DNA of 59,871 nt, filler included, from Catajapyx aquilonaris (taxonomy: Eukaryota): assembly GCA_000934665.2 (NCBI GenBank). It is 3 parts of 3 records of this genome, joined end to end, with 100 filler letters (N's around TTAATTAATTAA, not from the genome) between each part and the next. Parts side by side here need not be neighbours in the genome. Positions count along the whole stretch, not along the records: positions 1 to 19,881 come from JYFJ02006370.1; 2 more parts are not named here. The stretch is one strand, 5' to 3'. The translations under genes and the position numbers were made by a program. Below are positions 2,594 through 45,000 of the stretch, piece by piece (within the stretch, counting starts at the first letter, position 1; each line of letters opens with the position of its first letter). The notes below the pieces were generated by a model that worked only from the letters and a program-made list of their open reading frames with translations, was not told the origin of the DNA and searched no databases.

Positions 2594-4817
2594 ATGCTGA
2601 GGTTGCTTCTACTTTCTGTAACGGTCCATGCAATCCGGACAGTTTCATTGGTAAGTTTCTATTTTGCATATCAATGGTAACTGTTTAACTATGACATTCC
2701 TGCCCGTCTATAGGGCACTGCTGAATTCGACAGAGAAGAAGCAGCTTTGTCTGAAGCTGTTCGACACATATTGGACAACTCCAAATGTTCCTTGGGGTTG
2801 GGCACGGATTATCCGAACCTGAGTCAACCAATCCAGAATATCCTAATTTGGCACCAGAATCGGTATCTGCCTCTGGTATTTCACACAACCGTACCGTACA
2901 CTTTAGACCACACTCATCATCCATGGGTATGGCGACCTGAACAACTGATGTCGTTTCGCACACAACCTCCTGAACTCAGATCCGAATTGTGGCCTGGAAG
3001 TGAATGCGGTTTCACATTAATACTGGCTAAGAACACTTCAACAGTTCCAGAGCTGATCATGAACACTGCAAGTTCGTTCATGATCCGTAACCTGTACGAT
3101 CCTATGTACATACACGTGCATGATCATCACTCACATCCTGAACAATTGCTGCTTCAGGATCCGCTTCTAGGAGTCACACTGAAGCTACTAACACAGTTCA
3201 ACCAGAGCACAAACAGGTATCGTTTCAGTATGTAATGTGTACAGTGTTGGATATGCGTCATTGTCTGCTGCGGCAGAAGTGCAAATCGAAGTGATAGAGC
3301 CGTGCGAGTCAGAAGAGGTAGGCCTTGAGTGACGTCACTGGCTGGAGAGCAATGGAGAAAAGGCTTGTCCTCCAGCCAGTGACGTCACGCAAGGGCTACC
3401 ATTTCTGACTCGTATTAAGGCGGCTACACACGTCTGCCGCATCGGCAAATGTCTCTAGCAGTACAGCACTCATTGCGATTTTGTTCGCAGGCTGACACTT
3501 CACAACGTATGTCACTTCTGCGAGTCAGGTCAAGACTCATTGAATCCGCCAATTTCCACAGACTTTTCGCATGTGAACATCTTTCCTAATCCTCCTCGCA
3601 ACATGAACGGAAAGCTGATGAACATCGGATTGTTTGAGAACATATATGAAGACATGGAGCAAGCCAGATTGCGAAGAGATATGGGTGAGCTTCTGACTGT
3701 TGAGGAAGAACTGTACCTATTTTATGAGAAGCTTTTGAACATCATGATCGTCAACAAAGTTCCGCCACTAGCTTTGTCTGAAGTACGATCAAACGGAAGC
3801 TTAGCTGGATTCTCAGAAGCGATATGGAATCGCGACATAGACGTCGTTGGGATCATAATGTACACAGACATTTCAGTTAAAACGACCATACTTAGTTTTC
3901 CTGTGCTGCATACATGCGCTGGATTTGCGTCCAGAACACATCGCCCTGATATCAAATGGTATGTCATATTCCAACCGTACACGATCGGTGTATGGATGGT
4001 CCTACTGGCTTCGTTGGTACTGTCGGCTCTTTCACTGAACGTACTGGAGAGATCAGGTGTGTTACACCATATGAAACGGGTTCTTCGCGAGTTGGTAGAA
4101 CAACCGTTGGATTCAAGTCGAGACAATGCGGTTATGTTATTCCGTGCCTGTTTCTTCACATTTGCACTTGTCATAATATGTGGATACAAGACCAAATTGG
4201 TGTCGTTCATCACATTCCCATCACCCGAACGACTTCCGATAAATTCCTCGGAGTTGATAACATCCAAATTCACATGGGGCACCATCGAGGCTTTTTTTAT
4301 TGGAGCAAAAATTCTGCTGGTTAACCTGAACGGAACTGTTTACAACACATTGCTGGACAAATCGCACTTGATAACCAGCGTGCGACAGTGTATTGCACGT
4401 ACACAGCGTGAGGACTTTGGTTGTGTGATAACAGACTACATGTACGATCGTGAGTCTGGGTATTTCCTAGACGAAAAGGGCAATGGGAGGACCATATTTT
4501 GGACTGAAAAGGCCATGTGTTTGTTCACAGGTCAGGGTTATTCTAGAGACACGACCAATTTCGTGAACATCAATAGGGATTTGCAGCATTTGGTTCAGGC
4601 CAGTGTGTTTGATCATATCATGTATGATGTGGATCACCGACATTTTATTCGCAATTACTTTATGATCAGGAGGAAATATGGGGACTTCAATTCGTCAGGT
4701 CGATTGTTGAACATGGAGAAGTTGGCCAACATATTTTATATGTGGATTGTAGGTGTGTTTGTGTCGTTTTTGAGGTTTGTGTACGAGAAGGTACAGTTCA
4801 CTTGCAAGAAATCCTAA
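2594..4817 (+). CDS. Divergent ionotropic receptor (IR, variant iGluR chemoreceptor), 3 exons: 2594-2650, 2714-3216, 3491-4817; ~628 aa
   Basis: Exon 1 encodes a signal peptide (MLRLLLLSVTVHAIRTVSL). GT/AG junctions are phase-consistent (0, 2). Motifs: VCHFC, FPNPPRNMNGK, S1 (NGSLAGFSEAIWNRDIDV), M1 (IFQPYTIGVW), M3 (GYKTKLVSFIT, the SYTANLAAF equivalent), final TM (LLNMEKLANIFYMW). Confidence 0.9.
3305..3411. repeat. Hairpin/MITE-like inverted repeat in IR intron 2
   Basis: cgagtcagaagaggtaggccttgagtgacgtcactggctggag pairs with ctccagccagtgacgtcacgcaagggctaccatttctgactcg; weaker pairing extends outward to ~3240/3470. Confidence 0.7.
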
Positions 4818-15200: not shown

Positions 15201-16303
15201 TCATTTTATGTTTATGATTGTCCTTAATGTCCTTAATGGTCTTACTGAGAATTTATTTTTTTGCTGTCACAGTAATAACATGAAGAGTAACATGCGGCGG
15301 TATAGATAATGATATTAAAGTGAGCCCGTGCATAATAATTCATTGGTGTGAGATTATTTCACTTACCTGGGATGACAGCACTCGTCGCAATGTGTGTTTC
15401 TAAGATAGCATTGACTGGCAGTGAATGACTGTACCGCTATAGTTATCGTCTCTTTGTTCTAGACTTCGCTATGCTGATGGAGAGCGTATACGCATAATTT
15501 CCTTCAATCTGCAATTTGTTAGCATCTTATCTGTTTCGTCTGGCAGTTAATAAAACTGGTTTACCATAATTAGAAGCACAAAATGATTGCAATTTTTCAC
15601 TATATTTTTGGTCCATTGCACTTTTGTGAAAGTGCCATCAGTTCAATTCATTCATATAAGTAATGCATTATCTGAAAGGCCTGCCCTGTGATTGTTCTCC
15701 TTGTTGCACCTGGGTCATTCTGTGTGTGGTCTCTTGTACTCCGCTTCTCCGCATGAAACCCTCGATGGATATTCCCATATGAATCCTACACCTCACTCCC
15801 AGACTCCATGTCTGCATGTCCAGTTCATATCAACATGGATTAGTCTTTGAATGTATATTCCTCTGACAATTCAGGCCCTCATCCTTGTACTTGCAAGACG
15901 TTCCATTACACGTCGAAGGATGGGCTTCCCTTCAAGCAGGTGAAGCAGAAATTTGACAACGTCGGATTCGACATAGTCTTGGATATAAAAATAGTTCTCT
16001 CAGTCACCTCTGTACGTAGAGCAATGCAGTGAAGATGGGTTCATCGACAAGTCAACTGAAACTGTAATTGATTGTCACCCACTGGATTTTGTATGTGCAT
16101 CCTATCCCGTCACGCTAGCATGTGAACAATGAAATATGCCACATCGCCCACATGTTTTTCGTGGAAAAGACATGTAAAGAAGTGAAGAGTTTCATTGCCA
16201 CCATATAACAATATGAGATCACAAATTCCTGGCAACAGAATGTTTTGACTAGAATTTGCCTTTTTTTATGTGACATCTGGAGCTTTATTATCAATTCCAG
16301 AAA

Positions 16304-18001
16304 ATGGCTGGAATTATTCAAATTCTCATTGGACAATGCGGAATTAGGTGTGGGATAAAAGTGAGTGTAATAGTTGCGAGTACTGGATGCCACACTATAT
16401 AAACTTCTGGCTCTTATACTCATCAGCTATGGAACATGATGAGAGAAGAACATGCGCTCGATCAAGACCTGACTGGACAGCAAACCGCTGACAAAATGCA
16501 CCTGGAACGCATTTCCACATACTTCCAGGAGAAACAAAGTGTGGTAATTAGTCGCTAATTGTCGCACCCTTAATGAGCTTGCACTTATTCTCTACAGCGC
16601 GCAAGAACTACGAAACCCGAGCCATCGTAGTGGACATGGATGCCAACATGGTGGAGGAGGCTCACGCATTTGGTCGTGGCTATCTGTTCCCTTCGCACAA
16701 ACTGGTGTCCGGAAAGAAAGGGGCGTACAGGAACTGGGCCAGGGGATACCACGGAGAAGGAGAGGAGCTGATGGATGAGTTCCAGGACACTCTTCGTCTT
16801 CACGTGGAAGAGTGTGATAGTCTCCAGGGGTTCCAGATTGTCCATTCAGTGGCAGGCGGGACAGGCGGTGGGCTCGGTTCGCTCATTCTCGGTAAGCTGC
16901 AGGACGACTACTCCGAGTGTACGTTGGACACCATGAGCGTCTTCCCCTCTAATGATTCTATGAAGGTATGGCATTTCATACACGCTAATTCCTGTTTGTG
17001 ACGTGTGGCATTTATGTATTTGTAATGGTCAGCTCTGGAGCAAAGAGAGGCCGACCGACTCTTACAACAGCACCCTGACACTGTCGCACTTGATGGACTC
17101 TGCCCACACGGTGTACGTGTTCGACACCGAGGCTGTGAACAACATAAGTCGAAGAGCGCTCCATCGGCAGTACCTGTCCGAGCCTTGGAACCGGGTCATT
17201 TCGAGCGCCATATCCGGGCTGACCGTGGGTCTCAGGTCACCAGGAGACGTCACCTACAACATGAGTCGGATCTACCGTGACATGGTGCCAATCCCCAGGT
17301 TCAAGTTCCTCTCAAGCAGCTTGTATCCTCGTACTAGAGAAGACAATCTGGCCAACTTCGACACCAGTCTGGACGACGCACACGGCGAGGTGTTTATAGA
17401 CTCTAATGTGATGACATACTGCAAGGCGTCTCGTGGACGTACCGTAGCGTCCAAGGTGTTCTACCGCGGCGATTTTCATAGGAAGGACCTGCGGTTGAGC
17501 GTCGGACGAGCCAAGAACAAGGAGAGAATCGAGTATGTGCAAGGTCTGCAGAAGTTGACCACGGTCAGTCTCCACTCGTTACCTCCTGCCCAGATGCAGA
17601 GGTCAGTGTCATTCCTGACCAACAACATGGCCGTGCAGGACCTGTTTAATCGTATCCACGCGTCCTTCACCTACATGTTAATCAACAAGACGTACCTGCA
17701 GTGGTACCACAGGGAAGGGCTGGAAGAAGATGAGCTGACCGAGGCCTACAACAAACTTGTGGATATACAGTGGGAGTACACTCGAGCTTCGAAGACGCCT
17801 AAGGAGCTGAACGTGGTACCGAGTCTGACGTGGGACAAGAAGGGTTCAGGTAGAATGACCCCGACAGCTGGGAAGGAGATGGATGCAAGAAGACCGTCTC
17901 GCAAGGGACGGAGACAGAGAGGGTTTTCCAGCGATGTGTTAGATGAGCCGTTGAAAGAGAAACCGGAGTGTGAAGAAGAATGCGAAGAAGAAGATCTGTG
18001 A
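16304..18001 (+). CDS. Highly divergent beta-type tubulin, 4 exons: 16304-16360, 16427-16538, 16598-16965, 17033-18001; 501 aa
   Basis: MAGIIQILIGQCG, LERISTYFQE, RAIVVDMD, NWARGYHGEG, ECDSLQGFQIVHSVAGGTGGGLGS, MVPIPRFKF, YLQWYHREGLEEDELTEA. Introns after codon 19 (phase 0) and ~56 (phase 1) match typical beta-tubulin positions. One uninterrupted frame of 1506 nt. Confidence 0.9.
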
Positions 18002-18542
18002 AGGCCAAGAAGAGTCGCTATTTCCCAAATAAGTAAGCCTCAAAATTATACGCACTTTGCATGAAATGTAATGTAACAACGATAATGGAAGCAGATAAAT
18101 TTAGAGCTGCATATATATATCTGCGTTTGATGGTACAACGATCTTGTATGAGCATATCAGAACGCTAACCAGAAATTGTGTTAGTACAGTATTTGTTATT
18201 TATTTGTTTAATGTGCCTGTACTGGTTTGCACGGTATATCCAAAATCCGAAAAAATTGGGATCACACCTCGTAGTTCCTCCTCCGGCCCACCAGAGGCGC
18301 TGCTTCCTCCCATTACGCCGGCGCAGAACGGGGGCCATACAAAGAGACAGCCGTGTAGCCACTGGTGACGGCTGAGCTGAGATGGTGACTCAGGCCGGAC
18401 AAACAAACAAACCTCCTCTCAGTGTTTGCCAACTTTTGGGAATGGGCTCAGCAGTAGTGTACAAAAATTCCGGATCATTGTTAAATAGCTTGTTTTATTT
18501 ACAGCATATTTCGTAATGGATGTAAGACAGAAAGTAGCATTT

Positions 18543-19880
18543 TTATGGCAAATATGGATACCTTGGAGTGTGATATAATATTTCAATTATGAGCACAAGT
18601 ACAGCCACAGTCAAACCAAATATCCATGTGTAAAAGATTGATGCGAACTTCTTCACGTTCAGAAGACTTCCAGACGCTGCGTGGTCCTTCGATTTGTCTT
18701 TCATCATTTTAAAATATTTGTGAACAAAATTCCAGTGGTTGGCAGTAGATTCAATGTGAATGTACATGCCACATTCAAATGACCAGTTGTTTACCTTCTC
18801 AGCAATGACAAACCCAACGTCATCTCGACGCAGACCTCCGCTTGTGTACAGGCTGACCAATGGTTTCGGTGAGAGCAAAACGGTATGTTTACCAGACTTG
18901 TCCAAGTAGCAGTCCCGCTCTTCTCGGTATTTGATGTCCAGCATGAAGCAAACAAAGTCCTCGGTTTGAGTCTTTCTCAAGCATTCGTCCGTGGTCGGAA
19001 CTATTAGGTTGGCTTTCAATAGTTGTCGCTCGAGAGTGTCCTCGGGCAATTCCTTCAAGAGGAGTGACATTCCCAGCGAGGTGAGCAGTGTCGAACCCCA
19101 TTTCATCGGTGACTTGGTGAGCTCTTCTCCCGTTTCAGGGAGAATTTCCAGTCCAGGAAAAGTGATGAATGACACCAGCTTGCTTCTGTATAAAGTAGTT
19201 ATTATGACCCCGAACATGGAAAAGAAGCAGTAAAACATTCGGTTGTGGTTTGTGCTACTGCTATCGTCCGGCTGTTCCATGACATCTCTCAGAAGAAAAG
19301 CGGCGTTTGAACAGACTTTGGAGATGAAGCTTCTTCCTCTGCTACTTGTGGGATTTCTCGAAGATGAGTTGTCCAAATGGTACAAGGTGATGGATGAGAA
19401 AATTAGTGATAATACAAGCGTGATCCACATGGAAAAGCAATAGGGCTGGAATATGACGTACCATCTGAGGACTGGTCGAGGAATCCTGGAGACGAAGGTA
19501 CCTTGCACAAAGAATGTTGGGTATTGCAATCGAACAGCTCTGTAAGATATATCTGTATACAAGATGACTCCAGCCACATCTATTTCATTTGCAATAACAG
19601 CTCTGGCCATTCCCGTCAGGCTTCCGTTTGCGTACAGCTCATTTTCGTTGATTTCAGGGTTGACAATATCTATCAGGCAATTAACCTTGGCCTCGTAGCT
19701 TAATACAAATGTTTCGTCTTTGGTTAGCCGCTCTCCTCGTTTGTTCTTCCTTCTCGCTTCTTCCATATTCATCGGAAATATGTACCCCACCTTCACTCTC
19801 CTCCCGTTCATGTTGACAGGGGGATGCCTCATGAGGTTGTCCATGGCCATCCGAGGGCGGTATGGGATGGGCGGGTTGAC
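18543..19880 (-). CDS. Divergent ionotropic receptor (IR), 5'-truncated by the linker; paralog of the 2594-4817 IR
   Basis: VNPPIPYRP...HPPVNMNGRRV, NGSLTGMARAVIANEIDV, WYVIFQPY, LYRSKLVSFITFP, LLNVKKFASIFYTW; collinear with exon 3 of the first IR. Confidence 0.88.
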   Translation of the reverse strand, partial: VNPPIPYRPRMAMDNLMRHPPVNMNGRRVKVGYIFPMNMEEARRKNKRGERLTKDETFVLSYEAKVNCLIDIVNPEINENELYANGSLTGMARAVIANEIDVAGVILYTDISYRAVRLQYPTFFVQGTFVSRIPRPVLRWYVIFQPYCFSMWITLVLSLIFSSITLYHLDNSSSRNPTSSRGRSFISKVCSNAAFLLRDVMEQPDDSSSTNHNRMFYCFFSMFGVIITTLYRSKLVSFITFPGLEILPETGEELTKSPMKWGSTLLTSLGMSLLLKELPEDTLERQLLKANLIVPTTDECLRKTQTEDFVCFMLDIKYREERDCYLDKSGKHTVLLSPKPLVSLYTSGGLRRDDVGFVIAEKVNNWSFECGMYIHIESTANHWNFVHKYFKMMKDKSKDHAASGSLLNVKKFASIFYTWIFGLTVAVLVLIIEILYHTPRYPYLP

Positions 19881-19881
19881 G

Positions 19882-19981
19882 NNNNNNNNNNNNNNNNNNN
19901 NNNNNNNNNNNNNNNNNNNNNNNNNTTAATTAATTAANNNNNNNNNNNNNNNNNNNNNNNNNNNNNNNNNNNNNNNNNNNN
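19882..19981. other. Artificial contig linker (N run with TTAATTAATTAA six-frame stop)
   Basis: 100-nt N block with a central TTAATTAATTAA, identical in design to 39892-39991. Confidence 0.95.
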
Positions 19982-24800: not shown

Positions 24801-27800
24801 CTTACTGAAACAATACTTTCAAAATTTTTAGTGTAATAGAACCACAATGTAATCTTATAATTTCTGGCTTGCCGTCGATACAATTGTGAAGTAATTCGGA
24901 TTATAAACAGCCGAGATAATAAAGGTGTGCAATTAACTCAATTATGATTACAGAAATGGCGATCTCAATGTTTCAAGTATATCATCAGATAGACAAAGAT
25001 GTGCACTATCCAGGGTTCACAGGGGGATTTTTTTGGCTTCCTGAAAGTGTCATAAAAAATTCACCTTGCGGTGCAACGTCGGCAACTAGTCAAAAAATGA
25101 CACTTTTCCCCCTTATTTTTACAATAAAAAATTAGGGACTGACAATAGGAAAACAACTCTCATATATTATGTAACGTGGATTTAAACAAGCTTTCGAACG
25201 ATATATAACTAAATTTTTTTTTGATAATTTGCCTGGGAGTTGTTGAGTCAAACACAGGGCTCTATATTAAATAAACGGATAGTAGTGTGCATGCTTGATC
25301 CGGAGGCCATATATGTGACCCTCCTCTCATACCATACGGAGATCTAAATTTTTAAATGCGCAACAACGTGGCACAGGGGGTATGTTTCGCGCCTACTCAA
25401 ATTTTTTGTCACTTGGCCTGCGTGACAAAAAAGTATATGGGTATGTAGCCTTGGCCCCGCCAAACAAAGCAGCACATAAGCACATGGCATGAATTACATC
25501 ACAGGACAGGCATGCCAGCAACAGAGACAAACATTCACCCCCCCCCAACCGAGTGTATAAACCTCCCTCGCGCCACAGCTGTTCAAAAACCCCGCGGGGC
25601 GTGTGCCCCTCCATCCTGATGGAGGCTGGCCGGTAGTTGCCCAGTGGCCGCCAGCAGCTAATTGTCATTTACGAACACGATTTACTTATTTTAAAGCTAT
25701 TGAATTATTTTTTGAGCTAATTTTAGGGTGGAATCTCTTGAGGAGGTTTGGGGGCAACTATGTATGCCAAAAATTTGCTGGCCAAGGTCGGATTTCTTTT
25801 CTTTTTAGAAGATTTTTTCAGTGGCTGCAAAAAGATGATTTCATTCAAGTTAATCTGGTTAATCCGGTTTATTTATGCAAGATTTTATAGTCCAAAACTC
25901 GATTTTTTATGCGAGAGAAAACTTAAAAAGCCACACAGAAACCACGTTACATAAAGTGGGAAACCGCTATAGTTTTGCCAGCAGAATTTTTTAAAGCCAC
26001 TGTATCAGCATTTATTAGGGTTAGACTCTATTGTATTAACTTGATCACTTCAGCACAATCCCACAACCACAATCAAGCTGCAGTAGTCCACAATCCCTTA
26101 CACCACAGCTTTGAAAGGAATTGTATGCTATTGTGACAGTTTTGGTCAGCCCCCACTATTTCCTGCTCCATCCCATGTAATAGTGCAGCCCCATCTATTT
26201 TACATGTATTGATCTATTCGTTTCTGAAAATTGTTCAAACTGTACCCTTACCTGCTTTCGTCACTCCGACCCATGGCTCCCTTTTTTTCCCCATTATCCT
26301 CTGCATTTTCATCCGCCCTATAAATACTCACCGCCAACCCCATTCGAGGCTTTTTGGCCCTTCCCCTTTTTGGGGGAAGTAAATACCCTGTGGTCCTGAC
26401 TATGGACTCTGCTTCAATGACAATAAACATTCCGTCTTGAACAAGGAACCCCTGTCTTTTGTGTACCCAGAAACCCGTCACACTATTCCACATCATTTTA
26501 AAAAACCCCGTTTGCTAAGTATCCCCTACAGGGGACACCTCAACTATTACCAGGGTTGGCAATAATCAATGATTATTTTAAAATAATCAAATAATCGGAT
26601 TATTTTGATATAATAATGTTATTATTTGTAGTACAGCACTTTATTTCATTTTCCTGATAAAAACCCCACCTGCTATTTGAAGAAAATCAAGAAATGTATG
26701 TCAATATTGTCAAACATGTTACATTCCAAGGAAAGTGCATTATACAATATCAAGAGACAATATACAGTCAATCCTCGTTTAACACTGATTCCGCTTACTT
26801 GGGAGCGACTAGCCGACTACACTATTCAGTAGTGCACGTGTGTACATACCTGTAAGTCTGTAACACTTACAGTATTATTGTACACTACTGTATCTGTATT
26901 ACGCAGAAAGCAGTGCCTGATTACTACCTCTGTGGCTCTGTCATGTTCTCATGTACTGATTATGATAATTAAACTGTATTTTACTACATATACAATAAGT
27001 CAAGAGTCAAGAGTCAAGAGTTTTAAGTTTTAACTTTTTGACTGGTGAGTTTGTGATTATTGGTAGGATAAATGTATGACGAACCTGGTCCCCCAGGAAC
27101 CTATCCCCCTATTTCCCAAAATGTAATAATGTTTCACTTTACACAAAGTCACAAACCTATCCGGCTATCCCCGATGTTAAACGAGGATTGACTGTACATG
27201 GTGCTATGGTTCTATGGTAGGATATTTTTTTAGCCATTCAACATTTTAACTTCTTTAAATTATTGTTATTATTATTGTTATTATTATTATTATTATTATT
27301 AGTGATTATAATAAAGATTTTTCATTATAAATCAGTTGATTATAATCATGATTATAATCAATTGATTATAATCATGCCAACCCTGATATTACCAAGTCAG
27401 ACTTTCGAAATTAGAACTTAGAATTTATAAATATATAAAATTGTATTACCTGGACACTTGTGCAGATGTTAGATATTGAGTTACAGTATTATGTTAGCAT
27501 GTCATTTACTCATAATAATAATTTTTTTAAATAATTCAGGCATATTTGGGTTAAGGGTCCTATCGGTTGTAGATATTTTGCAATACTCACTCCATCCTTG
27601 TACAAGACGACTTTTCCACGGTGGAACCAGTAGAAGTCATGTGTTCCGAAAAACTTAACAGCAATCTCTCCCACACCGTGCTTCAGAGCAAGGATGTTTG
27701 TTGGAATCTGCTCGAGGGGTATGATCCTCCCTGGCCACCATCTGTAGTTACCCGGCTTGGCCCACACTATGTCACCATCCATGTAGACTTTCCCTTTACG

Positions 27801-29809
27801 GCAATCCTCACAAATAAAGCTGCCTTTTGGAGCCTTAATGTCCAGGCACCCATGATGGAAAGCAGCACGACATCTTCCACAGGATATCAAGATGCCACCT
27901 TTTGAGCATTGGCAGCACCAGGTGACATGAGATGTACGAGTCTTCCGCTTTCCACCTTCCACCTCCTGAATGTGCTTTGGGTACAGAATATGCCGTGGAG
28001 TAACGGGAAAGGAACCAGCTGCTCGGCAATGACAATCTGCATACTGAAAATCTCGTCCTTCGGTGTTCTCCAGACAAGATCGGTGGAAATAATTCTGACA
28101 CTTGCCCTTGCACTGCCACAATTCATCCTTGCGCCTCACTGTAAAGATGACATGTAAACGTCAGATTACCTATTGTTTTTAGACATAAGCTTTATCACAT
28201 AAAGCAACATGTATGTAATATGCGAGGGTTGGATTGAGCCATGGCACAACTTTTTCATTACAACTCCTTAGCAATTTCGACATGCTTGTGAAATGCTTTT
28301 ATTTTTAGAAAGTTGTCAATATCACAAGGACTGAGGTCAAGAAGTGAATGCAATGCACGCTGAGTACTTCCCATTCCCACATCGTTGCTGACGAGGTTAA
28401 TCACTTATTAATAGCATTTATTCATCACATATTCATCTCTCACATTGTTTTGTATGATTGGGATGGAGGAGGGGGCGTTTATCTTGTTTCTTGACAGCCT
28501 TTGTTACATTTGCATCATATTTTTATCATATCTGATAGAAGGTGGTCAGAGCAACAAGATGATTCCACAATAAGTTCATGGATGTAAAGGTGCAGGTGTT
28601 CAAATTAAAAAATAAAAGCCATGACCTCCACTTCACCACCATTTTTTAAAAACTTATTAAAAACCACTGAAATATCAATATTATTCATCCCAGCTAGACT
28701 AAAATAAATCCAATGAGGTCCACAAAAGTATTCAGAGTATTGGGTCAGTTACTGGTATTAGTCCATTAATTATTATCACTATTAATATGGGCAGTGCTTC
28801 TCACATCCATTACTCTTATGCCAGAAAAGTAAAGGCAAAAATGTTGGTAGGTCTTACTTTAAAGAAGATTATCTTGCTTTCTTTAGGTACTCATAAACTG
28901 CTTGTGACAGTATTATTGTCAGGGTTCCAGCCAGCCCCACGCAACTCCCTATCTAGAACTATGGTGACGGCTGTTGAATATAAAAGTCTCCCCCAGCCTG
29001 GAATTTGGTGCTTGTGCGGCCCCACAGGCATGTTGTGGTTCAGGTGGCTGACTGGCGATCTGTGAATTCCTTCCGGACCCAGCAGCAATGGATAGAATGG
29101 TTCGGATTGGTTCAGGCGTCTGCGAGCGGCCGCCCCAACCACAACATCCCTATGGGCATGCGCCAGCGCCACGGACGGAGACTTCTATATTCAACTCACG
29201 CATCGTGTGAGTTGCAGGGGGCTGGTTCCAGCCAAGTTTGCGCAGAAAAATTTGAAAACAACAAAATCTAAGCATAAACACATCGTTGAAACACTTATGA
29301 GTCCAAACACACTTCAGTATAGCAGCTTCTTTTGTTTTCCATGGTGCATTGTGGCAGGGTGTATAAATATACAGGTGGGGGACTGTTTTATGCCACTGTG
29401 TTGCTGGAACCAATTGCTCAAGTAAAAAGGGTCCCAGCTGCATTTGTAATTCTTGGCCTGAAGGGAGGCCTCTATGCAATCCACGTCAGGAGGTAATTTT
29501 TTCATGAACCTTAAGGGAAGGGTTCAGTCATTTGGAGTTTGGGTCCAAAGATCAGAAAGTTTCCCTGATTCCAAGTATGTGGTCAGTTTATGAATTTGAT
29601 GATGTAAGCAAATGCTGTTAGATTTCACTAGTAATAGCAATGGTATCAGATGTGCAGTATTGCCTTTCCTGCTATAGCTACCCTCTGACTGGCCAAGTCA
29701 AAACCCTGTATCTTGGCTTTTTGTCATTGAGATATTCATGTTTGAAGTTTTTTGTTTCTATTATGGTACATGGAAGTGCATGATTTATTATAACAATAAT
29801 AATAATAAC

Positions 29810-29863
<54 letters not shown>

Positions 29864-32800
29864 CCGGGGTAGTGCTTGATCTCATCTGAGGTATGCAGCA
29901 CGGACCTTTATTTATTACATCAAATACATTTGAGCCTTTTTACGTAGCGCCCGGGCCCACGGGCAGGATGACAGGAGGGGGATGTGCAAGGTGCAGTGCA
30001 ATGTCTTAAACGTGGCCATTTTTAGTAAACTCCCCCGGGTGGTTTAGTCTGTTGGAAATACCACCCGAGACGAAGCCAGAGGTGACCCTGAACTCTGCAC
30101 GAGATGAAGGGGGTGTCCCCGGGTTGGGATCGAACCCGGGACCTTAACGTCCGTGGGTGCATACGTTACCGCAGCACCACTCCGCCTCCCCTGGAAGTGC
30201 ATGATTTCAATTGGCTATAACTTTGCAAGGGTTTCTCCTCCAGTTGCGGACTTTGTACCAAAAGGTGTGGCTTGCAAAGAGTGCAATGGTACATTTATCT
30301 CCTATTACATGATTTTCGAAGATACGGGGTTCTAACTTGTGCCGTCAGCCCTACCTCCTGTTAGCCCATCTAACCCAATGGTCAAAGGGGTTGTCTTATC
30401 TGTGGAGTCATTTTATAATTGAATCAGTTGTTTCAAAAAGGAATTAAGCCCACTTTTTGGCATTTTCGAGTTAACACTACTATGTTGCTTTTGAATTTCT
30501 ACGCGTCTTCTGAATCTATGATATTCCTTAATTAATGGAGGATCTTCACTAAAATAATTATAGCAAAAGGAAAAGATGGGAACATTTTTTGTGTTTTTCT
30601 CAGAAGTTGGTTCATGGGATTTGAGTCTTTTTCGAAACAACTGATTCGATTCCACTTTGCATCACACTCCACACAAGTCTGCTACCTGCAGCTGAAAATT
30701 CCAACACTGAGCCATCAAAAATAGGCTACCTGGCAGGATGGGATGGGAAAGTGGCCTGCATCACTTTTGCCTCTAGGCATGGCCATCTTGCCTGCAATCT
30801 CAACCAGCTTCTCAATTTTCCACTATGAAGGTACAGAATTGGTAACGAAGTACAGTAAAACTTCTATAAGTCGAATCTCCATGGGACCGGAAAAAAGCTT
30901 CGAGTTATAGAAGATCTGAGTGAGAGAGGTTTGGAATTATTTAAGCAACCTAACTCTATAAGGAAGCCTCCCTTTATATCCAGCAACGAAAGGTGTTCAA
31001 GACTTGAAAATAACTGTCACTATCACACTTATAACATTTCTCGTTGTTTTGTTGTAAAGAAATCTCCGAGATGGACATTTGCCTACTCTTACATTCAAGG
31101 ATTCAATTGTCACAATCGAGTCAAACACTTCTTTCGGTACATCTGGTAGATGGAAATCAGGAAATTGAGCCTTTCTGTACATGTGGCCTACTCTGGACTC
31201 TTCGGCTGGGAAATGAGAAAATTTTCCGTACTCGCCAACATGAACTTCGACTTAGGAAGACTGAAAATGCATTGAAATCCCATCGAAAGGCCATGCCAGC
31301 ACTTCGAGTTATGGAAGTTGATATCCTATTATTTTACATTGTGACCAACAAAGCTCATCATTTTCTTCGACTTAGGGAAGTTCGATTATATTATGGAAGT
31401 TTTACGGTAATAGAAAATCAACTAGGGAGGCGAAGTGTCGCTGCAGTAACGTATGCGCCCACGGATGTTAAGGTCCCAGGATCAAATCCCGCCCGGGGTT
31501 CCCCCCCTTCATCTCGTGCAGTGTTGGGCCATCTCTGGCTTCGTCTCGGGTGGAATCTCCGATAGACTAATCCACCCGGGGGAGTTCACAAAATGTACCA
31601 CATTATAGACATTGCACTGCACTTTGCACATCCCCTCCCAGTCACCCTGCCCGTGGGCCCAGGCGCTTCGCTCAAGGTTCCAATTGTACGTATGTACATC
31701 ACATATTAATGATCAATAAAAGGTCAGTGTAAGATACCCCACAAAAGGTGAAGCACTACCCATGATTATGATGATGATGATGATTATTATTATTATTATT
31801 AATAGAAAATCAACTTTCACTTGCAATTTTACACTTAGGGTATCATTTTTACCAAAACTGACCACATATTTGAAAACATTCTTTTCTGATCATTAAGACC
31901 TGTCCCCAAAGCAGATTTGTTTTAATTTTTTTTACACAAAATCACACTGTTACAGCACCCTCTCACTGCTGCTGTCACAGCTAGGTCTGGTGATGACATT
32001 TCCAAAGTCAACTGTGACACCTACATAATCATGGAAACCATATGACATGGTTAAAATAAAGTTTGTCATACAAGGTGCAGTCATTAAGTTCGAAGCCCGA
32101 ATTAAATCTCGGCTCCCATTTAACATACGAGGTGTGATCAAAAAGTTCCCGGACTGTCGATATACCGTGCAAACCAGTGGAGCTACGAACTTGTGACGTT
32201 AGGGGGCGCTAGGTGCACCTTTCATCTATTAGCCTGAAAAATCTCGTCTTCATAGGTGCACATGTTTCCGAGTTTTGGCAGTTTTCTTGACACCGTGTTC
32301 TTGTGCTTCTGCGATTTTTCGAAATGGCTGATGTTAGGGAGCAAAAGATTTGTATTAAATTTTGCTTCCAGCTCAACAAAACTTCGGATGCAACCAACCG
32401 AATGCTGAACAAGGCTTTAGATGAGCAAGTTGTAAGACAAGCAATAACATATGAGTAGTTTAACAGCTTCAAAGGTGGCGCGCCAAGTGCGCGGCAAAAT
32501 CAACTCAATGCTGATCATTTTCTTTGACATTTTAGGAATTGTGCACATGGAGTTTTTCCCTCCTGGTAAAACTGTCAACGGCAAGTCTTACTGTGATGGT
32601 TTGAGACTATTTAGTCTCAATTTGCCGGAGATATGGAAGAACATAGACTGGTTGCTGCGCCATGACAATGCCGCCTGCACACACCTCACGCGTAGTCAGG
32701 GACTTCCTGATAAAAAATAACATGACCACTGTTCCCCACCCTGCATATTCGTTCGTCCTGTCACCACGTGCTTTCTACCTCTTCCCTAAAATGAAATTTG

Positions 32801-35800
32801 GGTAGAAAAGGAGGGATTTTGACTCCACTAAGGAGGTCTAAGCCAAATCGCAGCAGGTGTTGAACACACTACTGTTTGGCAATTTTTTTTGGTGCTTCCA
32901 AAAATGGGATATTCGCTGGAATTGTTGTATACGTACCCAAGGTGAGTACTTTGAAGGTGGCAGTGGAAATTAGGACTTAAAGTAAATATTAATGTTTTTA
33001 TGAACACAGTCCGGGAACTTTTCGATCACACCTCGTATCACGGCCAAATATTTATGGCACATCGAGAGACTCTTTAGGGTGCAGAGGAAAAAAAAATAGG
33101 TCGCTGGCTCATATTCGATAATAGTTCTGGTCGTTTTCCCGAGAGGGCACGCGGGAGTTCGGCGATGAGAATAAATAACACAAAATGGCGCCTGAGCGGA
33201 GGTTTGAGGAGCAACGCAACTCAATCAAATTTTGTGTGTTGCTGGGCCATACTCCCCAGGAAACACTGGGCATGTTGAGGAAGGCGTACGGCAAATGTGC
33301 TGCTCTCTCATGGCCGGTTGTAAAAAAGTGGCATCGGCGTTTCCGGGAGGGCCGAGAGACAACATCGGACAATCATCGCAGCGGGCGGCCCATCACTAGT
33401 CGAGACACCGATGCCGATTTTTTACAACCGGCCATGAGAGAGCAGCACATTTGCCTTACGCCTTCCTCAACATGCCCAGTGTTTCCCGGGGAGTATGGCC
33501 CAGCAACACGCAAAATTTGATTGAGTTGCGTTGCTCCTCAAACCTCCGCTCAGGCGCCATTTTGTGTTATTTTTTTTTATTATTATTTTTTTTAAAGGTT
33601 ACCCCGTGATAGAGCTCGTGGCCCTCTTAGGGGGGAAGGGGAAGTTCCCAAGGGAGGGCGCCGTGCGATAGCCATTTCTGACATTCTTTAACACCAGACC
33701 TTTTCTCCTGGCCCCGAGCAGAGAAGGGAGTGCAATTCTGCTCCGGCATGTCAGGTGAAAAGCGGAAAAAGACCCGGCCAAGCAGAGGTGACGGGGACGG
33801 GATTTGAACCCCGGCCTCCCGCTTGGCTGGCCAGCGGCGTAACCGCTAGACCACCATGCCGCCCTGATTTTGTGTTATTTATTCTCATCGCCGAACTCCC
33901 GCACGCCCTCTTGGGAAAACGACCAGAACTATTATCGAATATGAGCCAGCGCCCTATTTTTTTTTTCCTCTGCACCCTAAAGAGTCTCTCGATGTGCCAT
34001 AAATATTTGGCCGTGACATGTTAAATGGGAGCCAAGATTTAATTCGGGCTTCGAACTTAATGACTGCACCTTGTAGGTGGGGGAGAAAAAACGAATTTGT
34101 ACTGATCGCGTGACCTCTATCGGTCATCTTATTGATTTAAATCAGCCACGAGCCCCTCCACTTTCACTATAGAATTCTGGGCCAGGAATGCTACTAGTAC
34201 AACTCCTTCCCCTCTGTAGCATTCCCAACCGCTATGACAGCGCCCTCCCAGCTGTCGCGGGGGCACTGTCACAGTGCAATTTTGTGTAAAAAAAAGCTGC
34301 TTTGGGAACAGGCTGTTAGACCCCAACATGCAAAATGAATGGACCTTCCCTTTAAAGAAAAGCTGCAAGAAACTGACTTGCTTCCTCATCAGCAATCCCT
34401 GAGAACTACTCCTTCAAATAAATCATAATATATTTTCTGATCTACCACATGTATTTTACCTTTGACTCAAATAACTACCTCAGGATAGAAGAACTTTACT
34501 CACCACCCTTCTCACATATCTGGCAGACAACGTTCCGCAGTAACTTGCCACAGTTCATCATGGAAAAAGTTGTTTCCCGGAGACTGGAGTCGTTTTCATG
34601 CTGGGTCTCATCTTCATGTACGCTTGCTTCATCCCCCTGCATGCCATCCTCTTCCAAATTTTCATCTTTCTTGTTGACGTCTCCGAACCGCTTTGGTGGC
34701 CTTCTGACTCTTTTTGGCCTAAGCTTAGGGGCTTCCTCCCTATTTTGATCCAGTTCTTCCTGATCATCATTACTACCATTATTGGACCCATATTCCGGTA
34801 CCCACTCTCCCATTTTTCTCAGTCGTTCCTCCAGTTGTTTTCTCTCCTGTCTTATGTAATCTGCGAACGCATACTCCTGATCATCATTACTATCATTATT
34901 GGACCCATATTCCGGTACCCACTCTCCTATTTGTCTCAGTCGTTCCTCCAGTTCTTTTCTTTCCTGTCTTATGTAATCTGCGAACACATACTCTATCTTG
35001 TGATTCGGTGTCACGGTATCCCATTTGCCGCGGAGATGATTTTCAGTCTCCTCCTTATTGAGTCCAATGTCTGCTATCTGTTGCAAACACTTGCCACCAT
35101 TTAGTTCATAAAACAACATGGAAGCACTTTCCAATTTGCCTTTCGTAGGTTTCTTTATTGGGTCCCGTTTTGGTTTTAAAGAGGGTTTACGTATCTTCTT
35201 TGAGCGTGATGAGGCATTTTTCTTCTGCCCTCCAGATTGCTCTTTGGATGAAATTGAACGGCTATGCTTATCTCGTACATCTTCTGCCTTCCAAGCACAA
35301 TATTCCAACCTCGTTTTATTTCCAACATCCTCAAGTTTTCTTGCCTCCTTCATACCTCGATTCCATGTGTGTGTTAGGCGGTGCGGCACCTTTAATGAAG
35401 CTGCCGATATTTGTTTTCCATTCGGTCCTTTTCTCCGACGTGAACCCACTTCAAGTCTTCGGAACTCATGATGACCATATTTTATCAGGTGATATTCTTT
35501 GATCCAAGCATGTTCTGCATTAGATCCAAGAAAATCCACATGGATCTCGGTTAATCCATCTTTGTCACGACGAAACAAATCGATACTTTTATCTTCTGTT
35601 ACAACTGCAGCCCAATATGGGTAACCCTGCAAATGTGCCAAAACAAGGGCACCTGGATTCCATTCAGTTGCTTGTGTCGCCTGTAGTGTGATATCTCCCT
35701 CACTGTCTGATTTGGAACTCCCTGTAGTGGTGATATTACCAGGCTTGTTAAGTTGTGAAGTGTTGGTAATCTCCACATCTAAGGGGCGCTTCTTTGATGT

Positions 35801-35872
35801 CGTATCATCTGTAAGGTCCCCTTTCACACTTGCTTTCTTCTTAATTTTCATCAGTTTGGTTACGCCCTTCAT
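21829..35872 (-). CDS. NSD/Mes-4-derived chromatin reader lacking the SET domain (or recent pseudogene); exons 35872-34504, 28138-27591, 21993-21829; ~693 aa
   Basis: PWWP1 (LVLAHLQGYPYWAAVV...HVDFLGSNAEHAWI), an HMG-like segment, PHD1 split by a phase-1 intron (VCQICEKG|VRRKDELWQCKGKCQNYFHRSCL), PHD4 (WCCQCSKGGILISCGRCRAAFHHGCL), PWWP2 (IVWAKPGNYRWWPG...VKFFGTHDFYW), the post-PWWP helix (FQRALVEA), then a stop. Splice phases 1 and 0 are consistent. Confidence 0.8.
22083..23020 (-). mobile_element. 5'-truncated LINE (L2/CR1-group-like), 3' end of ORF2, frameshifted
   Basis: RIFDAQIVPSVLYNVQIWG...LERVQTYFLKK, RLETGRRQLE, and a CTLCN...HMVYECC zinc-knuckle-like motif, followed by a (CTTA)n tail at ~22083-22096. 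Confidence 0.8.
23029..24609 (+). mobile_element. Non-autonomous Kolobok-like DNA transposon with long TIRs and a THAP-domain remnant
   Basis: TTAA on both sides; AGGGACACTCC...GGAGTGTCCCT termini; ~360-bp imperfect TIRs. Internal THAP-type ORF (ATG 23558, CVVY frameshift CKRH...FP...QW...VCIDHY...LKPNAVPT). Confidence 0.85.
24614..24938. mobile_element. Palindromic MITE
   Basis: gttaattgcacacacc...ggtgtgcaattaac, with ~130-bp imperfect inverted arms. Confidence 0.75.
26551..27385. mobile_element. hAT-like MITE containing a nested Tigger/pogo-like MITE
   Basis: TIRs CAGGGTTGGCA / TGCCAACCCTG, with subterminal GATTAT/ATAATC repeats; near-duplicated flanks ctattac/atattac. Confidence 0.75.
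26765..27194. mobile_element. Tigger/pogo-like MITE (nested)
   Basis: TA-CAGTCAATCCTCGTTTAACA ... TGTTAAACGAGGATTGACTG-TA: perfect 20-bp TIRs with TA TSD. Confidence 0.9.
28932..29224. mobile_element. MITE with 8-bp TSD (hAT/P-like)
   Basis: TSD GTTCCAGC (28924-28931, 29225-29232); TIRs CAGCCCCACGCAACTC / GAGTTGCAGGGGGCTG; internal inverted blocks. Confidence 0.85.
29790..30191 (-). mobile_element. tRNA-derived SINE family A, copy 1
   Basis: Head GGGGAGGCGGAGTGGTGCTGCGGTAAC...GGTTCGATCCC (Pol III A/B boxes), body shared with the other three copies, (ATT)n tail. Confidence 0.9.
30853..31407. mobile_element. Tigger/pogo-like MITE
   Basis: TA-CAGTAAAACTTCTATAAGTCGAA ... TTCGATTATATTATGGAAGTTTTACGG-TA, with internal ttcgacttag repeats. 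Confidence 0.75.
31424..31800 (+). mobile_element. tRNA-derived SINE family A, copy 2
   Basis: Same head and body; (GAT)/(ATT) tail; 15-bp TSD aatagaaaatcaact on both sides. Confidence 0.92.
32128..33035 (+). mobile_element. Internally deleted mariner element (nested)
   Basis: TA-CGAGGTGTGATCAAAAAGTTCCCGGACTGT TIRs; degenerate transposase pieces (EQKICIKFCF; MLIIFFDILGIVHMEF; LRHDNA; HPAYS..LSP). Confidence 0.9.
33573..33866 (-). mobile_element. tRNA-derived SINE family D
   Basis: Minus-strand head GGCGGCATGGTGGTCTAGCGGTT...GGTTCAAATCCC; A-rich tail; TSD attttgtgttattt on both sides. Confidence 0.85.
34760..34993 (-). repeat. In-frame 117-bp tandem duplication within the first coding exon of the NSD-like gene
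   Basis: EYVFADYIRQERKELEERLRQIGEWVPEYGSNNDSNDDQ / EYAFADYIRQERKQLEERLRKMGEWVPEYGSNNGSNDDQ. Confidence 0.95.
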
Positions 35873-35937
35873 GATTTCTCACGTGCACTGTTGCTCCTAA
35901 AACAAATTTCGAAAGGAAATATATATAGTTACAGTCA

Positions 35938-42071: not shown

Positions 42072-45000
42072 TTAGGCTGCTAACAGAAATGCCCCACGGC
42101 ATTCAATAGTCCTTGCCCAACAGCCTACATCAACCAAATCATGGAGTATCTTCTCTGTCACTTCTGAATTGTGCCTGAAATAGAAGTGGATATTTTAAAA
42201 TGGGTTCAAGCTTATCAAATGGTGTGCTGGCAAATGTAAGAGACATGGCATAAGGCAGGAGAGTTATGGAGAAGAATAAATAGGTGTCAAACGCTCTCTC
42301 ATGACATTTTGGCTTTTCATGTGGCATTATTACTATTGGTTTACCACTTGTGGATTGATGGCAGGATTCTAATTCCCTGCCTTTACTGAACCAATCACAA
42401 TAAGTTTGCATTTAAATACACTGACAACAGTTTGTAGCCACCAGCACATACATACTCGTATCAAAGCACCTTTTGTAGTAAGTTGCAATGTCAATCATTA
42501 CAACATGCTCCAACAGGTGCTAATATACACTTACCTATAGTCAGGATGGGTCCTCACAAAATCACGGATCCAGCGAGCAGTGGTTTTAGACTCGCCTGAT
42601 GCCCTCCTACGCCAGAGGCATAGATATGATTCCAACAGGTCCAAAGTTGCCATATCCAGTTCATTCTTCCAAAATTCAATCTCTTCCTTTATTATCCCAG
42701 CAAGTCCAGGAAAGCACACACATCCCTATATTCAGAAAGAGCATAAATCATTGTAGCTAAAAGTAGTAAGTGAGATAACTCTCAAAAGGGAACAATACCT
42801 TTATCCCATTAACAATCTGATTCACAGACATCAGATTCCAGTCTCTGTCATGGCTTACATCACAACTGATATTCTTCCTTGGTCCTAGAGGAAACCAAAA
42901 CAGTTCCCTCAAGACAGCATCTCTGATGGTAGCCCGACACATGTTATCATCCAAGAAACTAACAGGTACTCGGAAGTTTAAGTCAGGTCGGCGGAGGACA
43001 GCTCTGGACAAAAGAACGACCATGCTCATGAAGGCTGCATTTTCCACTTCACTCATCTGTGCTTCACAAGGCCGGAACTCAACACGCCATCCACACGACT
43101 GGCTCTGTCAAAATTGCATAAATGTTAGCTGCAAATACCGTAATATTTCCTACATGGCATGTGTAACTGCAGCAGTGTTGTTGAAAAGCACATGAGAAAA
43201 CAGCATGAGAGCTTCACCAGCAATATCAGTCATAATTTTGAATACAATTTTCCCCTTACCGGAGGTTTGAGACGCACTGTTTGGTAGCAAAAGCTCAGGC
43301 ATATGTCATGGAAATATCTGTCAGCATCACTTCCAGCACACTGCAGATAATGGTGGTGAAGCAGAAGTGGTGGTTGTGCTAATATGGTTGACACATGGCG
43401 GGCAAGAAGTGAATCTGCACCTCCACTCTCCATCTGGTGTCGAACGCTCTCCTCCACTCCTTCGTGTTCAGCACACTCCCACAAGTCGTTGAACCTTTCT
43501 GCTCCTTCTGACAAGTATCCACCAATGCTAGACACTCTAGGCCGACCAGAGAGAGTTGGCCGAGAATCAAAGGAAGATACTAACAGAGGCCACCGGGTAT
43601 CACTATCAAGAAGCATGCCCCGTAAAGCTGGTGAGGCTGCAGAAAGAGCCAGGAATATTGGCGCCATGGCTGCAAGCTGGTCATAGAGGCGTCTAGCTGA
43701 TGGGAAATCAGGTGCCTGGACTGTCACCTGCACGGCACATGCACTGGCACCCACAGCTGTGCCTTCTGCACATAACACCCCAGACGGAGCCCAACGTGGT
43801 GCTATTGGATCACGCCATGGCCATCGAGTCAGCCTGTCTCGAAACACTGGAAATGACACCATTGCTTAGATTACATGGTCATAAAGCCAATCACATACTG
43901 TTATGAAATACAGCATTCACAAATAGTGCCTCATACTGAGAATATACTGGCAGGAAAATGTGAAAATCCACAACATAAGTTACATGTTGCTGCAGTAGAT
44001 TAATCTTACAACACTCCCATTTCACAATAAACCTGATATGCTGTCTCAGAAATGTATTATGAGGTGGGGAAATTCCATACACTTTTTTTTGGTAGCCGTG
44101 CTTTCAATAGTCACTGCTGTAAATTCATTACTTTTTAATAGATGTTAAGCATGCATGTTAATTAAGCATTTACAATGCAGTATATTCCCTTCTTTTATCA
44201 TAACAAATATGTTCGCCCTCATCACTTTCAGCCAATGGCAATTGCCAACATACGTACAGGGTGGAAATGAATTAGGGGGGACAAACTTGTAGGGGTAATA
44301 GAGGGGACCAAGACAAACATATTTGACACAGGTACCCGTGATGGGAAACGCCATCTAGAGGGGGTTCATAGACAAGGAACGGGTGCGCTCAGACGTGTCA
44401 GGCGGGCGGCGTTAGCGAGCGGACCGTTTAGTTGCTAGGTGGCTCGCAGATTGTACACAACTCAGCAATTCGCAATAACCTGGCAACAACAGAGTTGTGT
44501 TGTTTATTATCTGCGCGCTACCTAGCATGCTGACTTTAGTTGTTAGGTGGTTCAGTTGTTGCCAGATTATGGCAAATTGCGAAGTTGTGTACAATCCGCG
44601 CTCCACCTAGAAACTAAACGGTCCACTCGCTAGCGCTGACCGCCTGAAGTGTCTGAGAGCACCCATTCCTCGTCTATGAACCCCCTCTAGATGGCGTTTC
44701 TGAACACGGGTACCTACGTCAAATATGTTTGTCTTGGTCCCCTCTATTACCCCTACAAGTTTGTCCCCCGAATTCATTTACACCATGTACATGGTATCAT
44801 CGATTCCTCTCAATTGTTGCTATAAAATTACATATCTGTGCACAACCAAAACTTTCATCTACAGTTAAACAAGACCCTACCAGTCTCAATCAGTGAGAAA
44901 ACTACGAGTTTTTCAGTCTCCCCACTCCTTGATGATTCCTCTCAGCCTCAGGGGATAACAATATTGTACCGTTCTTGAGAAGTCTAATGCAGAAAAATAT

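Follow-up and report, generated by a model that had tools for sequence, protein, structure and literature searches.

The alpha- and beta-tubulins of animals are among the most constrained proteins known. A locus in the genome of Catajapyx aquilonaris (assembly GCA_000934665.2) raises the question of how far such a protein can depart from its consensus and still be kept as a gene. It lies at positions 16304-18001 on the + strand of a 59,871-nucleotide stretch of DNA, here called the window, and it encodes a tubulin-like protein altered at many near-invariant residues. Is the gene intact and selected, to which tubulin class does it belong, and what might its product do? The evidence given below makes it likely that the locus holds one intact gene, present in a single copy and kept open by selection, whose product is a beta-tubulin paralogue that has evolved very fast. 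The best explanation overall, toward which we lean without strong confidence, joins that reading to a mechanism in which the product serves as a tissue-restricted specialist on particular microtubule arrays.

On the + strand between 15800 and 18600, two long open frames (16552-17001 and 16964-18001) are preceded by two short coding blocks. GT-AG joining of four exons turns these into a stop-free tubulin coding sequence at 16304-18001, with the following parts:

16304..16360, + strand: exon 1, codons 1-19, with the MAGI start and the T1 loop GQCGIR; ends in phase 0 and is followed by GTGAGT
16361..16426, + strand: intron 1, 66 nt, GT-AG, after codon 19; GC 0.41
16427..16543, + strand: exon 2, helix H1 and the H1-S2 loop with beta-type LERI; ends at 16538 (phase 1) or 16543 (phase 0)
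16539..16605, + strand: intron 2, either 16539-16597 (59 nt) or 16544-16605 (62 nt), with GT-AG and frame kept in both
16598 (or 16606)..16965, + strand: exon 3, core of the GTPase domain from S2 to S5, with T2, T3 (GAYRNW) and T4 (AGGTGGG); identified by PF00091, PDB beta-tubulin matches and AlphaFold2
16966..17032, + strand: intron 3, 67 nt, GT-AG, within the T5 loop; a second in-frame acceptor lies at 17047
17033..17791, + strand: body of exon 4, end of T5 and H5 to H12 (T6 DTEAV, H7, T7 GDVTYNMSR, M-loop, H11-H12); identified by PF03953, AlphaFold2, Foldseek and VIA-align
17792..18001, + strand: tail of exon 4, 69 codons and the stop; predicted disordered

All frame-preserving GT/AG pairs were enumerated, and two splice choices remain ambiguous, setting the length of the predicted protein at 496-501 amino acids (aa). 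For intron 2, the pair 16539-16597 has the better acceptor and gives 501 aa, while 16544-16605 has the better donor and gives 500 aa in gapless alignment with beta-tubulin. For intron 3, acceptor 17047 would remove five residues and make the T5 loop equal in length to that of beta-tubulin. The introns are all GT-AG, 59-67 nt long, with the six splice dinucleotides intact, and no stops, frameshifts, lost splice sites or missing parts were found in the gene. The intact 501-aa open reading frame (ORF) reported in a first-pass annotation of this DNA is reproduced by donor 16539 with acceptor 16597, and lengths of 496-500 aa are also possible. Exon 1 aligns residue for residue with beta-tubulin residues 1-19. 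The same annotation described the intron positions as ancestral, which is correct in part. Canonical animal beta-tubulin introns presumably fall after codon 19 (the conserved first intron) and at codons 55/56; intron 1 matches the first of these exactly, intron 2 lies 1 nt to 2 codons off the site aligned with codons 55/56, and intron 3 is outside the comparison.

None of the runs of N in the window touches the gene, and one 13,271-nt contig in the DNA runs spans 15800-18445 with no differences, at that contig's single-copy depth. Of the five DNA runs listed for the region, four derive from one sample, possibly the source, and the fifth reaches just the repeat 3' of the gene; no RNA run was among those listed. 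No second tubulin-like stretch was found in the window by tblastn. The start context is AAAATGG. An acceptor-like ttccag/AAA stands at 16296-16303, and because it directly precedes the ATG there may be an upstream non-coding exon, in which case the promoter would lie further 5' than the 100 nt examined. The window contains no full RFX X-box, only a single half-site 73 nt upstream of the ATG, and no Rfam family.

Several lines of evidence place the product among the tubulins. The Pfam domain Tubulin (PF00091) is found on exon 3 at 5.7e-28 (98.9 bits, cut-off 33) and Tubulin_C (PF03953) on exon 4 at 3.4e-14 (53.5 bits, cut-off 26.6). A Misato-type Tubulin_3 assignment for exon 3 was rejected, as its 27.1 bits fall below the cut-off of 30 and the match is secondary to PF00091. 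When PDB sequences were searched by phmmer, exon 4 scored 2.9e-32 and exon 3 1.2e-29; each large exon matches 170 distinct chains, and the best 60 of those 170 are beta-tubulin in both cases (60 of 60). The exon-3 and exon-4 pieces were modeled separately with AlphaFold2, at a predicted local distance difference test score (pLDDT) of 87.2 and 79.5, respectively; in exon 4 the value exceeds 80 over most of the body and drops below 50 beyond H12, from about residue 265 of the piece. The top Foldseek match for the exon-4 model is 5lyj_D (E 2.1e-24, root-mean-square deviation (rmsd) 1.9 over 252 columns). The best Foldseek rows are tubulin crystal complexes, with chains B or D in 44 of the 46 listed matches, which we take to be the beta chains of that crystal system. 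By VIA-align, the same model is closest to yeast beta-tubulin 4ffb_B (Z 28.6, rmsd 2.0 over 254 residues), followed by fly alpha-tubulin (27.2), BtubA (27.2), Asgard tubulins (25.6-25.8) and gamma-tubulin (24.5-25.1); CetZ scores 12.9, and CetZ, FtsZ and TubZ are all at or below that value. The ESM Atlas returned generic tubulin clusters at 0.92-0.94, with a "delta chain" cluster at rank 7, and has no discriminating power here. As judged by Pfam, PDB sequence search and predicted fold, the gene product is a true tubulin.

In tubulins, loops T1 and T4 hold the nucleotide phosphates, T3 senses the gamma-phosphate, and N204, Y222 and N226 contact the base. Loops T5 and T7 make the longitudinal contacts and the M-loop the lateral ones, while T7 and H10 face alpha in the dimer. 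Alignment of the Catajapyx protein with canonical beta rows shows changes throughout these elements: MREI has become MAGI, GQCGNQ GQCGIR, GAGNNW GAYRNW, GGGTGSG AGGTGGG, VVEPYN PTDSYN, DNEAL DTEAV, and GQLNADLRK GDVTYNMSR. All seven of these replacements had been listed in the first-pass annotation and all seven are present. Its two main statements about them, that nucleotide-site residues are altered in an extremely divergent but intact gene and that MREI is absent, are likewise confirmed, with changes in T1, T3, T4 and T6 and an N-terminus that reads MAGI. The T3 pair G98/N99 is replaced by Y/R. The near-universal T6 asparagine N204 is replaced by T, a loss unique among 43 aligned rows; Y222 is lost as well (aligned to S or to a gap), and N226 is retained. 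Identity to beta-tubulin is best kept in T4 (71%), S4 (67%), T1 (62%), H8 (50%), the H11-H12 loop (44%) and H11 (39%), and worst kept in the M-loop (7%), T5 (10%), T7 (11%), S7 (18%) and H10 (18%). The MVPxPR stretch of H8 and the H11-H12 region are retained, and T7 ends in a basic residue, R, where beta has K and alpha has E. The 69-residue tail holds 15 K+R and 16 D+E; its middle is basic (RRPSRKGRRQRG), and only about the last 11 residues form an acidic terminus (ECEEECEEEDL).

Some of the same loop variants occur in unrelated divergent tubulins. The T4 sequence AGGTGGG is found in an unnamed divergent beta (P0143) and RGGTGGG in P0040, and the T1 sequence GQCGIR is found in the Tetrahymena alpha-like protein P0138. 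This recurrence suggests, at the level of sequence comparison, that departures from the glycine-loop consensus are tolerated in only a few forms.

Selection and decay were compared using tests intrinsic to the sequence, namely neutral simulation, GC content at third codon positions (GC3), retention of conserved columns, and conservativeness of replacements. Under neutral substitution to 32% identity, none of 300 runs stayed free of stops; the runs ended with 14.5 stops on average, and the median identity at which the first one arose was 97%. Because no neutral run stays open, nearly all of the divergence appears to have arisen under selection for an open frame. The GC3 of the tubulin coding sequence is 0.655, as against 0.39-0.42 in the introns, 0.40-0.43 in the flanks and 0.40-0.59 in other long ORFs of the window; with divergence at saturation, this high value is not a passive leftover. 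Columns common to alpha and beta are kept at 74 of 146 positions (51%, the lowest of the set), compared with 47 of 215 for the other beta-conserved columns (Fisher p 2e-8). At the 240 conserved columns that differ, the mean BLOSUM62 score is -0.33 versus -1.22 +/- 0.09 in shuffles, a value reached by none of 5000. Taken as intrinsic evidence, these results show that purifying selection has acted on fold and frame over the long term, and they would be compatible with a function lost only recently. The first-pass description of a maintained gene agrees with these marks of long-term selection, which are visible in the simulation, GC3, the conserved columns and the conservative replacements alike.

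Does the gene belong to a known group of divergent tubulins? Exon 4 was searched exhaustively by phmmer against 1.84 billion representative proteins, including those of insects, Daphnia, myriapods and protists, at an E-value of 1e-3 or better, and 1686 matches were returned. The top two (P0001 and P0002) are dinoflagellate gene models from Symbiodinium and Prorocentrum that hold at least two tubulin copies or fragments each, and they owe their scores to the summing of two matched stretches rather than to closer kinship. Canonical beta rows follow, scoring about 113 bits at 28% identity, and no relative closer than canonical beta was found among the 1.84 billion representatives, a collection without the lineage of Catajapyx itself. 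The best 150 of the 1686 matches are all alpha-like, beta-like or Asgard-like; gamma-, delta-, epsilon- and zeta-tubulins score lower, since none is among them. Clustering of 152 retrieved proteins assigned 61 to beta and 42 to alpha. Among the retrieved proteins, 43 are less than 50% identical to both references, and all of these lean to one class by at least 55 bits except two Asgard-type rows. Names found for 30 of the 43 divergent rows include divergent protist alpha- and beta-tubulins, a Heimdallarchaeota tubulin and a bedbug alpha-like protein. In a word-indexed protein collection, exon 4 gave 844 candidates, none at an E-value of 1e-5 or better. Metagenome contigs gave 39 pattern matches and one tblastn match, the latter a bacterial membrane-protein ORF sharing one octapeptide, which we attribute to chance.

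Sampling controls bear on how this is to be read. The neighboring ORF at 3459-4817 likewise has no match in the word-indexed collection (4735 candidates), and a conserved exon of the nearby glutamate-cysteine ligase gene is at most 67% identical to any protein (beetles), with 63% for Daphnia and 61-63% for myriapods. The genome is arthropod-like and comes from a lineage whose proteins are unsampled in the collections. Because the control ORF and exon also lack close matches, a missing orthologue of the tubulin gene says little. Judged by these searches, the gene does not represent a class found widely among arthropods.

Beta is the nearest class wherever the sequence is scored. Against canonical beta, the spliced protein scores 236 bits at 31.6-32.9% identity; against canonical alpha, it scores 185 bits at about 29%. 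By tblastn, beta exceeds alpha in both large exons (128 and 81.6 versus 116 and 60.8 bits). A beta hidden Markov model (HMM) scores 372.0 and an alpha HMM 315.7, a difference of 56 bits in favor of beta, where the two Asgard-type rows show +3 and +15. The LERI motif of the H1-S2 loop occurs in the canonical beta rows and the Catajapyx protein only, and the loops have beta-type lengths. Marks of the alpha class are missing: T7 ends in R rather than the acidic E of canonical alpha, and the alpha-specific S9-S10 insertion is absent, an absence common to the Asgard rows that excludes only alpha. The main tree was built by maximum likelihood under LG+C20 from 25 rows, after 18 of 43 (redundant canonical rows and some unnamed divergent ones) were left out. 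It places the Catajapyx protein as sister to all beta rows with support of 95/84. The terminal branch of the protein, at 1.88 changes per site, is longer than any other and some 30 times the 0.04-0.06 of animal-type beta rows. The scores point weakly to beta, which is nearest in every one of them, with a beta signal that is the weakest of all rows compared. That the gene is a beta descendant on a very long branch seems likely to us, although trees alone are insufficient to show so.

If so, what might such a protein do? As described in PMC10403363, TTC5 recognizes MREI on the nascent chain during tubulin autoregulation. With MAGI in place of this four-residue tag, the mRNA would escape TTC5-mediated autoregulation, if the pathway exists in the host animal. 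The changes in the loops suggest that a nucleotide is probably still held through its phosphates, with guanine recognition and the gamma-phosphate switch weakened. The protein would most likely occupy the beta position on an alpha-tubulin, a pairing that we infer. With its longitudinal contacts (T5, T7) and its lateral ones (M-loop) both altered, it would not act as a normal subunit of a dynamic lattice. We would expect it to work in a restricted tissue and there to alter, cap or stabilize particular microtubule arrays. The germ line is the probable site, by analogy with the most divergent insect tubulins: bioRxiv 10.1101/185827 describes 85D and 65B, the fly beta paralogues that have diverged most, as expressed in testis only, and betaTub65B as unstudied. 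The mechanism as a whole, in which a tissue-restricted beta-position subunit pairs with alpha and modifies, caps or stabilizes arrays rather than building dynamic ones, is put forward tentatively, as a plausible proposal that we would not call probable.

A number of results weigh against this interpretation. The 56-bit preference for beta is about half that of the weakest divergent beta (+95), the other divergent betas ranging from +95 to +154 in leave-one-out tests. Of 131 columns that discriminate alpha from beta, 24 carry a beta-like residue in the protein, 16 an alpha-like one and 91 neither (binomial p 0.27); bona fide divergent betas are beta-like at 31-51 and alpha-like at 12-18. A 66-residue piece from T5 to H7 scores equally against gamma (19.8 bits), beta (19.5), Asgard (19.2) and alpha (18.2) chains. 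The tree compares alpha, beta and Asgard-type rows. Approximately unbiased (AU) tests do not reject grouping with alpha (log-likelihood difference 1.97, p 0.18) or with the Asgard-type pair (2.84, p 0.33), and they marginally reject nesting in animal-type canonical beta (13.65, p 0.032). In a quick tree of 43 rows, on which we do not rely, a search constrained to alpha was better than the free search by 10.3 log-likelihood units. T7 (11%) and H10 (18%), which are among the least conserved elements, are those that face alpha in known structures, while alpha pairing is part of the proposal. Finally, the canonical poly(A) hexamers AATAAA and ATTAAA, and other common ones, are absent within 600 nt 3' of the stop (18002-18600), where only AATAAG (18028) and GATAAA (18094) occur. 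The first-pass annotation had called the gene beta-type and named phylogeny against the tubulin classes as a check. With alpha, beta and Asgard rows in the tree, the outcome is mixed: the scores and the position beside beta (95/84) favor the call, while the column count of 24 to 16 and the unrejected alpha (p 0.18) and Asgard (p 0.33) placements leave it short of established.

Three rival explanations draw on parts of this evidence. If the gene were dead or dying, either as an unexpressed duplicate or as a divergent tubulin whose constraint relaxed recently and which has acquired no disabling mutation yet, the substitution of near-invariant functional residues and the failure to find an orthologue in the collections searched would be in keeping, as would, on a smaller scale, the 600 nt downstream that lack any canonical poly(A) signal. 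There is also a precedent in classification, since the treatment in PMC4202323 counts intact mammalian copies with "completely unlikely" substitutions as pseudogenes. A decaying copy fits poorly with a frame that has no stop or frameshift and six intact splice dinucleotides, with 0 of 300 neutral runs open at the same divergence, with a GC3 of 0.655 far above the 0.40 background, with conserved sites preferentially kept and replacements conservative, and with confident folds for both exon pieces. We regard this reading as improbable. A second possibility is that the gene is not beta-derived at all but is an old, separate tubulin lineage that arose near the alpha/beta split and survives in a poorly sampled arthropod lineage. 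The AU tests leave beta, alpha and Asgard placements open while marginally rejecting nesting in animal beta, the discriminating columns are near balance (24 and 16), and the T5-H7 piece stands no closer to beta than to gamma, alpha or Asgard chains. Survival in one lineage would require very many losses, however, and nothing closer than canonical beta was found among 1.84 billion representatives. The LERI motif, the beta-type loop lengths, the intron after codon 19 (a beta position, as we take it) and the 56 bits of the profile test, as compared with +3 and +15 for true outgroup-type rows, all speak for beta, and the end branch of 1.88, being the longest, is expected to be attracted toward the base. 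An ancient origin of this kind is in our view quite improbable.

The third rival concerns function. The protein might be tubulin-derived but stand outside the alpha/beta system, neither pairing with alpha nor entering microtubules, and serve, for example, as a nucleotide-binding scaffold or regulator that uses its charged tail. Its least conserved elements are indeed the polymer and dimer contacts (T7 11%, M-loop 7%, T5 10%, H10 18%, S7 18%), the loss of N204 is unique among the 43 aligned rows, the 69-residue disordered tail is half basic, and only 51% of alpha/beta-invariant columns are kept, the lowest of the set. Still, H8 (50%), H11 (39%), the H11-H12 loop (44%), S4, T4 and T1 remain recognizably beta-like, T7 has a basic end as in beta, and a short acidic terminus is kept; moreover, we know of no animal precedent for a tubulin that left the polymer system. 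On balance we consider such a role unlikely. A bolder combination can be framed against the six classes into which eukaryotic tubulins fall according to Findeisen et al. (PMC4202323). The gene would represent a seventh, lineage-restricted animal kind, whether it branched off long ago near the alpha/beta split or descends from beta and left that class. Its product would keep the fold and the phosphate loops, lack guanine reading and lattice-type GTP cycling, and act outside the alpha/beta polymer through its charged tail. This we view as a long shot. The preferred reading remains a selected beta paralogue that may act as a specialist on particular microtubule arrays.

How does this beta paralogue compare with tubulins already described? 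With canonical beta-tubulin (PDB 6i2i_B, 4i4t_B and 4ffb_B; P0013 and P0007) it shares the two Pfam domains, the fold, the loop lengths, LERI, the GQCG part of T1, the basic end of T7 and, presumably, the intron after codon 19. It differs in being only about 32% identical, in having lost MREI, in the rewriting of T3, T5, T6, Y222, T7 and the M-loop, and in a tail of 69 partly basic residues, whereas the canonical beta tail has about 15-20 residues and is acidic. Reproduction-restricted arthropod tubulins include Drosophila betaTub65B (CG32396) and betaTub85D, testis beta2 duplicates of beetles and wasps, and ovary alpha4, as treated in PMC2880298 and bioRxiv 10.1101/185827. Like these, the Catajapyx gene is an extra paralogue evolving much faster than housekeeping genes. 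The maximum pairwise distance that PMC2880298 reports for such beta duplicates is about 0.46, however, while the Catajapyx protein stands about 0.68 from canonical beta; among the values given there, the single match is the most distant alpha pair, at 0.70. None of the reproduction-restricted arthropod betas was recovered as a closer relative in the representative search. Their expression is known, whereas the Catajapyx gene is known from gene sequence alone.

Orphan protist tubulins offer a second comparison. They include the Naegleria "bonus" beta (P0076), proteins of Tetrahymena (P0138), Stentor (P0110) and Euplotes (P0094), and the foraminiferal type-2 betas (P0046, P0118). These paralogues, derived from alpha or beta and restricted to their lineages, likewise have degenerate GTP loops. 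In all of them the class signal is clear, at +95 to +154 or -80 to -169 bits, and they keep 79-109 of some 146 invariant columns, in contrast to +56 bits and 74 of 146 for the Catajapyx protein. They come from protists with many microtubule systems rather than from an animal. A very divergent extra arthropod tubulin is also known in Cimex lectularius ("tubulin alpha chain-like", P0134, XP_014241903.1). Unlike the Catajapyx protein, it is clearly alpha-derived, with 51 alpha-like and 10 beta-like columns, 46% identity to canonical alpha and 30% to beta, and an S9-S10 insertion that is partly kept; it also keeps GGGTGSG and DNEAL, both of which are lost in Catajapyx. Divergent orphan paralogues are already known from Naegleria, ciliates, foraminifera and insects. 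The Catajapyx gene is a further case of the same phenomenon and, among animal genes, marks its far end: its tail is rewritten, and of all rows compared it keeps the fewest invariant columns and gives the faintest class signal.

Two related, apparently single-exon ORFs of about 450 aa flank the gene in opposite orientation, at 3459-4817 (+) and 18543-19925 (-). They resemble receptors or channels; Pfam identifies Lig_chan in the second (3.1e-8) and nothing in the first, and both look, by sequence, like fast-evolving ionotropic-receptor-type genes. Further along the window are an NSD-like histone-methyltransferase gene with PWWP and PHD exons at 27510-35878 (-) and the glutamate-cysteine ligase catalytic-subunit gene (GCLC) at 43230-49415 (-), whose best relatives are insect, at 67% identity. 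Nothing links these neighboring genes to the tubulin gene. Just 3' of the tubulin gene, an element at 18244-18337 has a word depth of 3000-4760 in the DNA runs, compared with 21-35 in the surrounding contig. Many contigs end in it, on both sides, and it has no Rfam match. These features suggest a dispersed repeat present in some 100-200 copies.

An intact, selected animal gene of this kind, with N204, the T3 sensor, T7, the M-loop, the autoregulation tag and the tail all rewritten, would be a natural experiment separating the tubulin features needed by the fold from those needed by a dynamic lattice. Should the Catajapyx gene prove unexpressed, it would be a warning that intrinsic evidence by itself can make a tubulin copy seem open and selected. 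Expression confined to a particular tissue would take to an extreme the rule seen in insects, that reproductive tubulins diverge freely.

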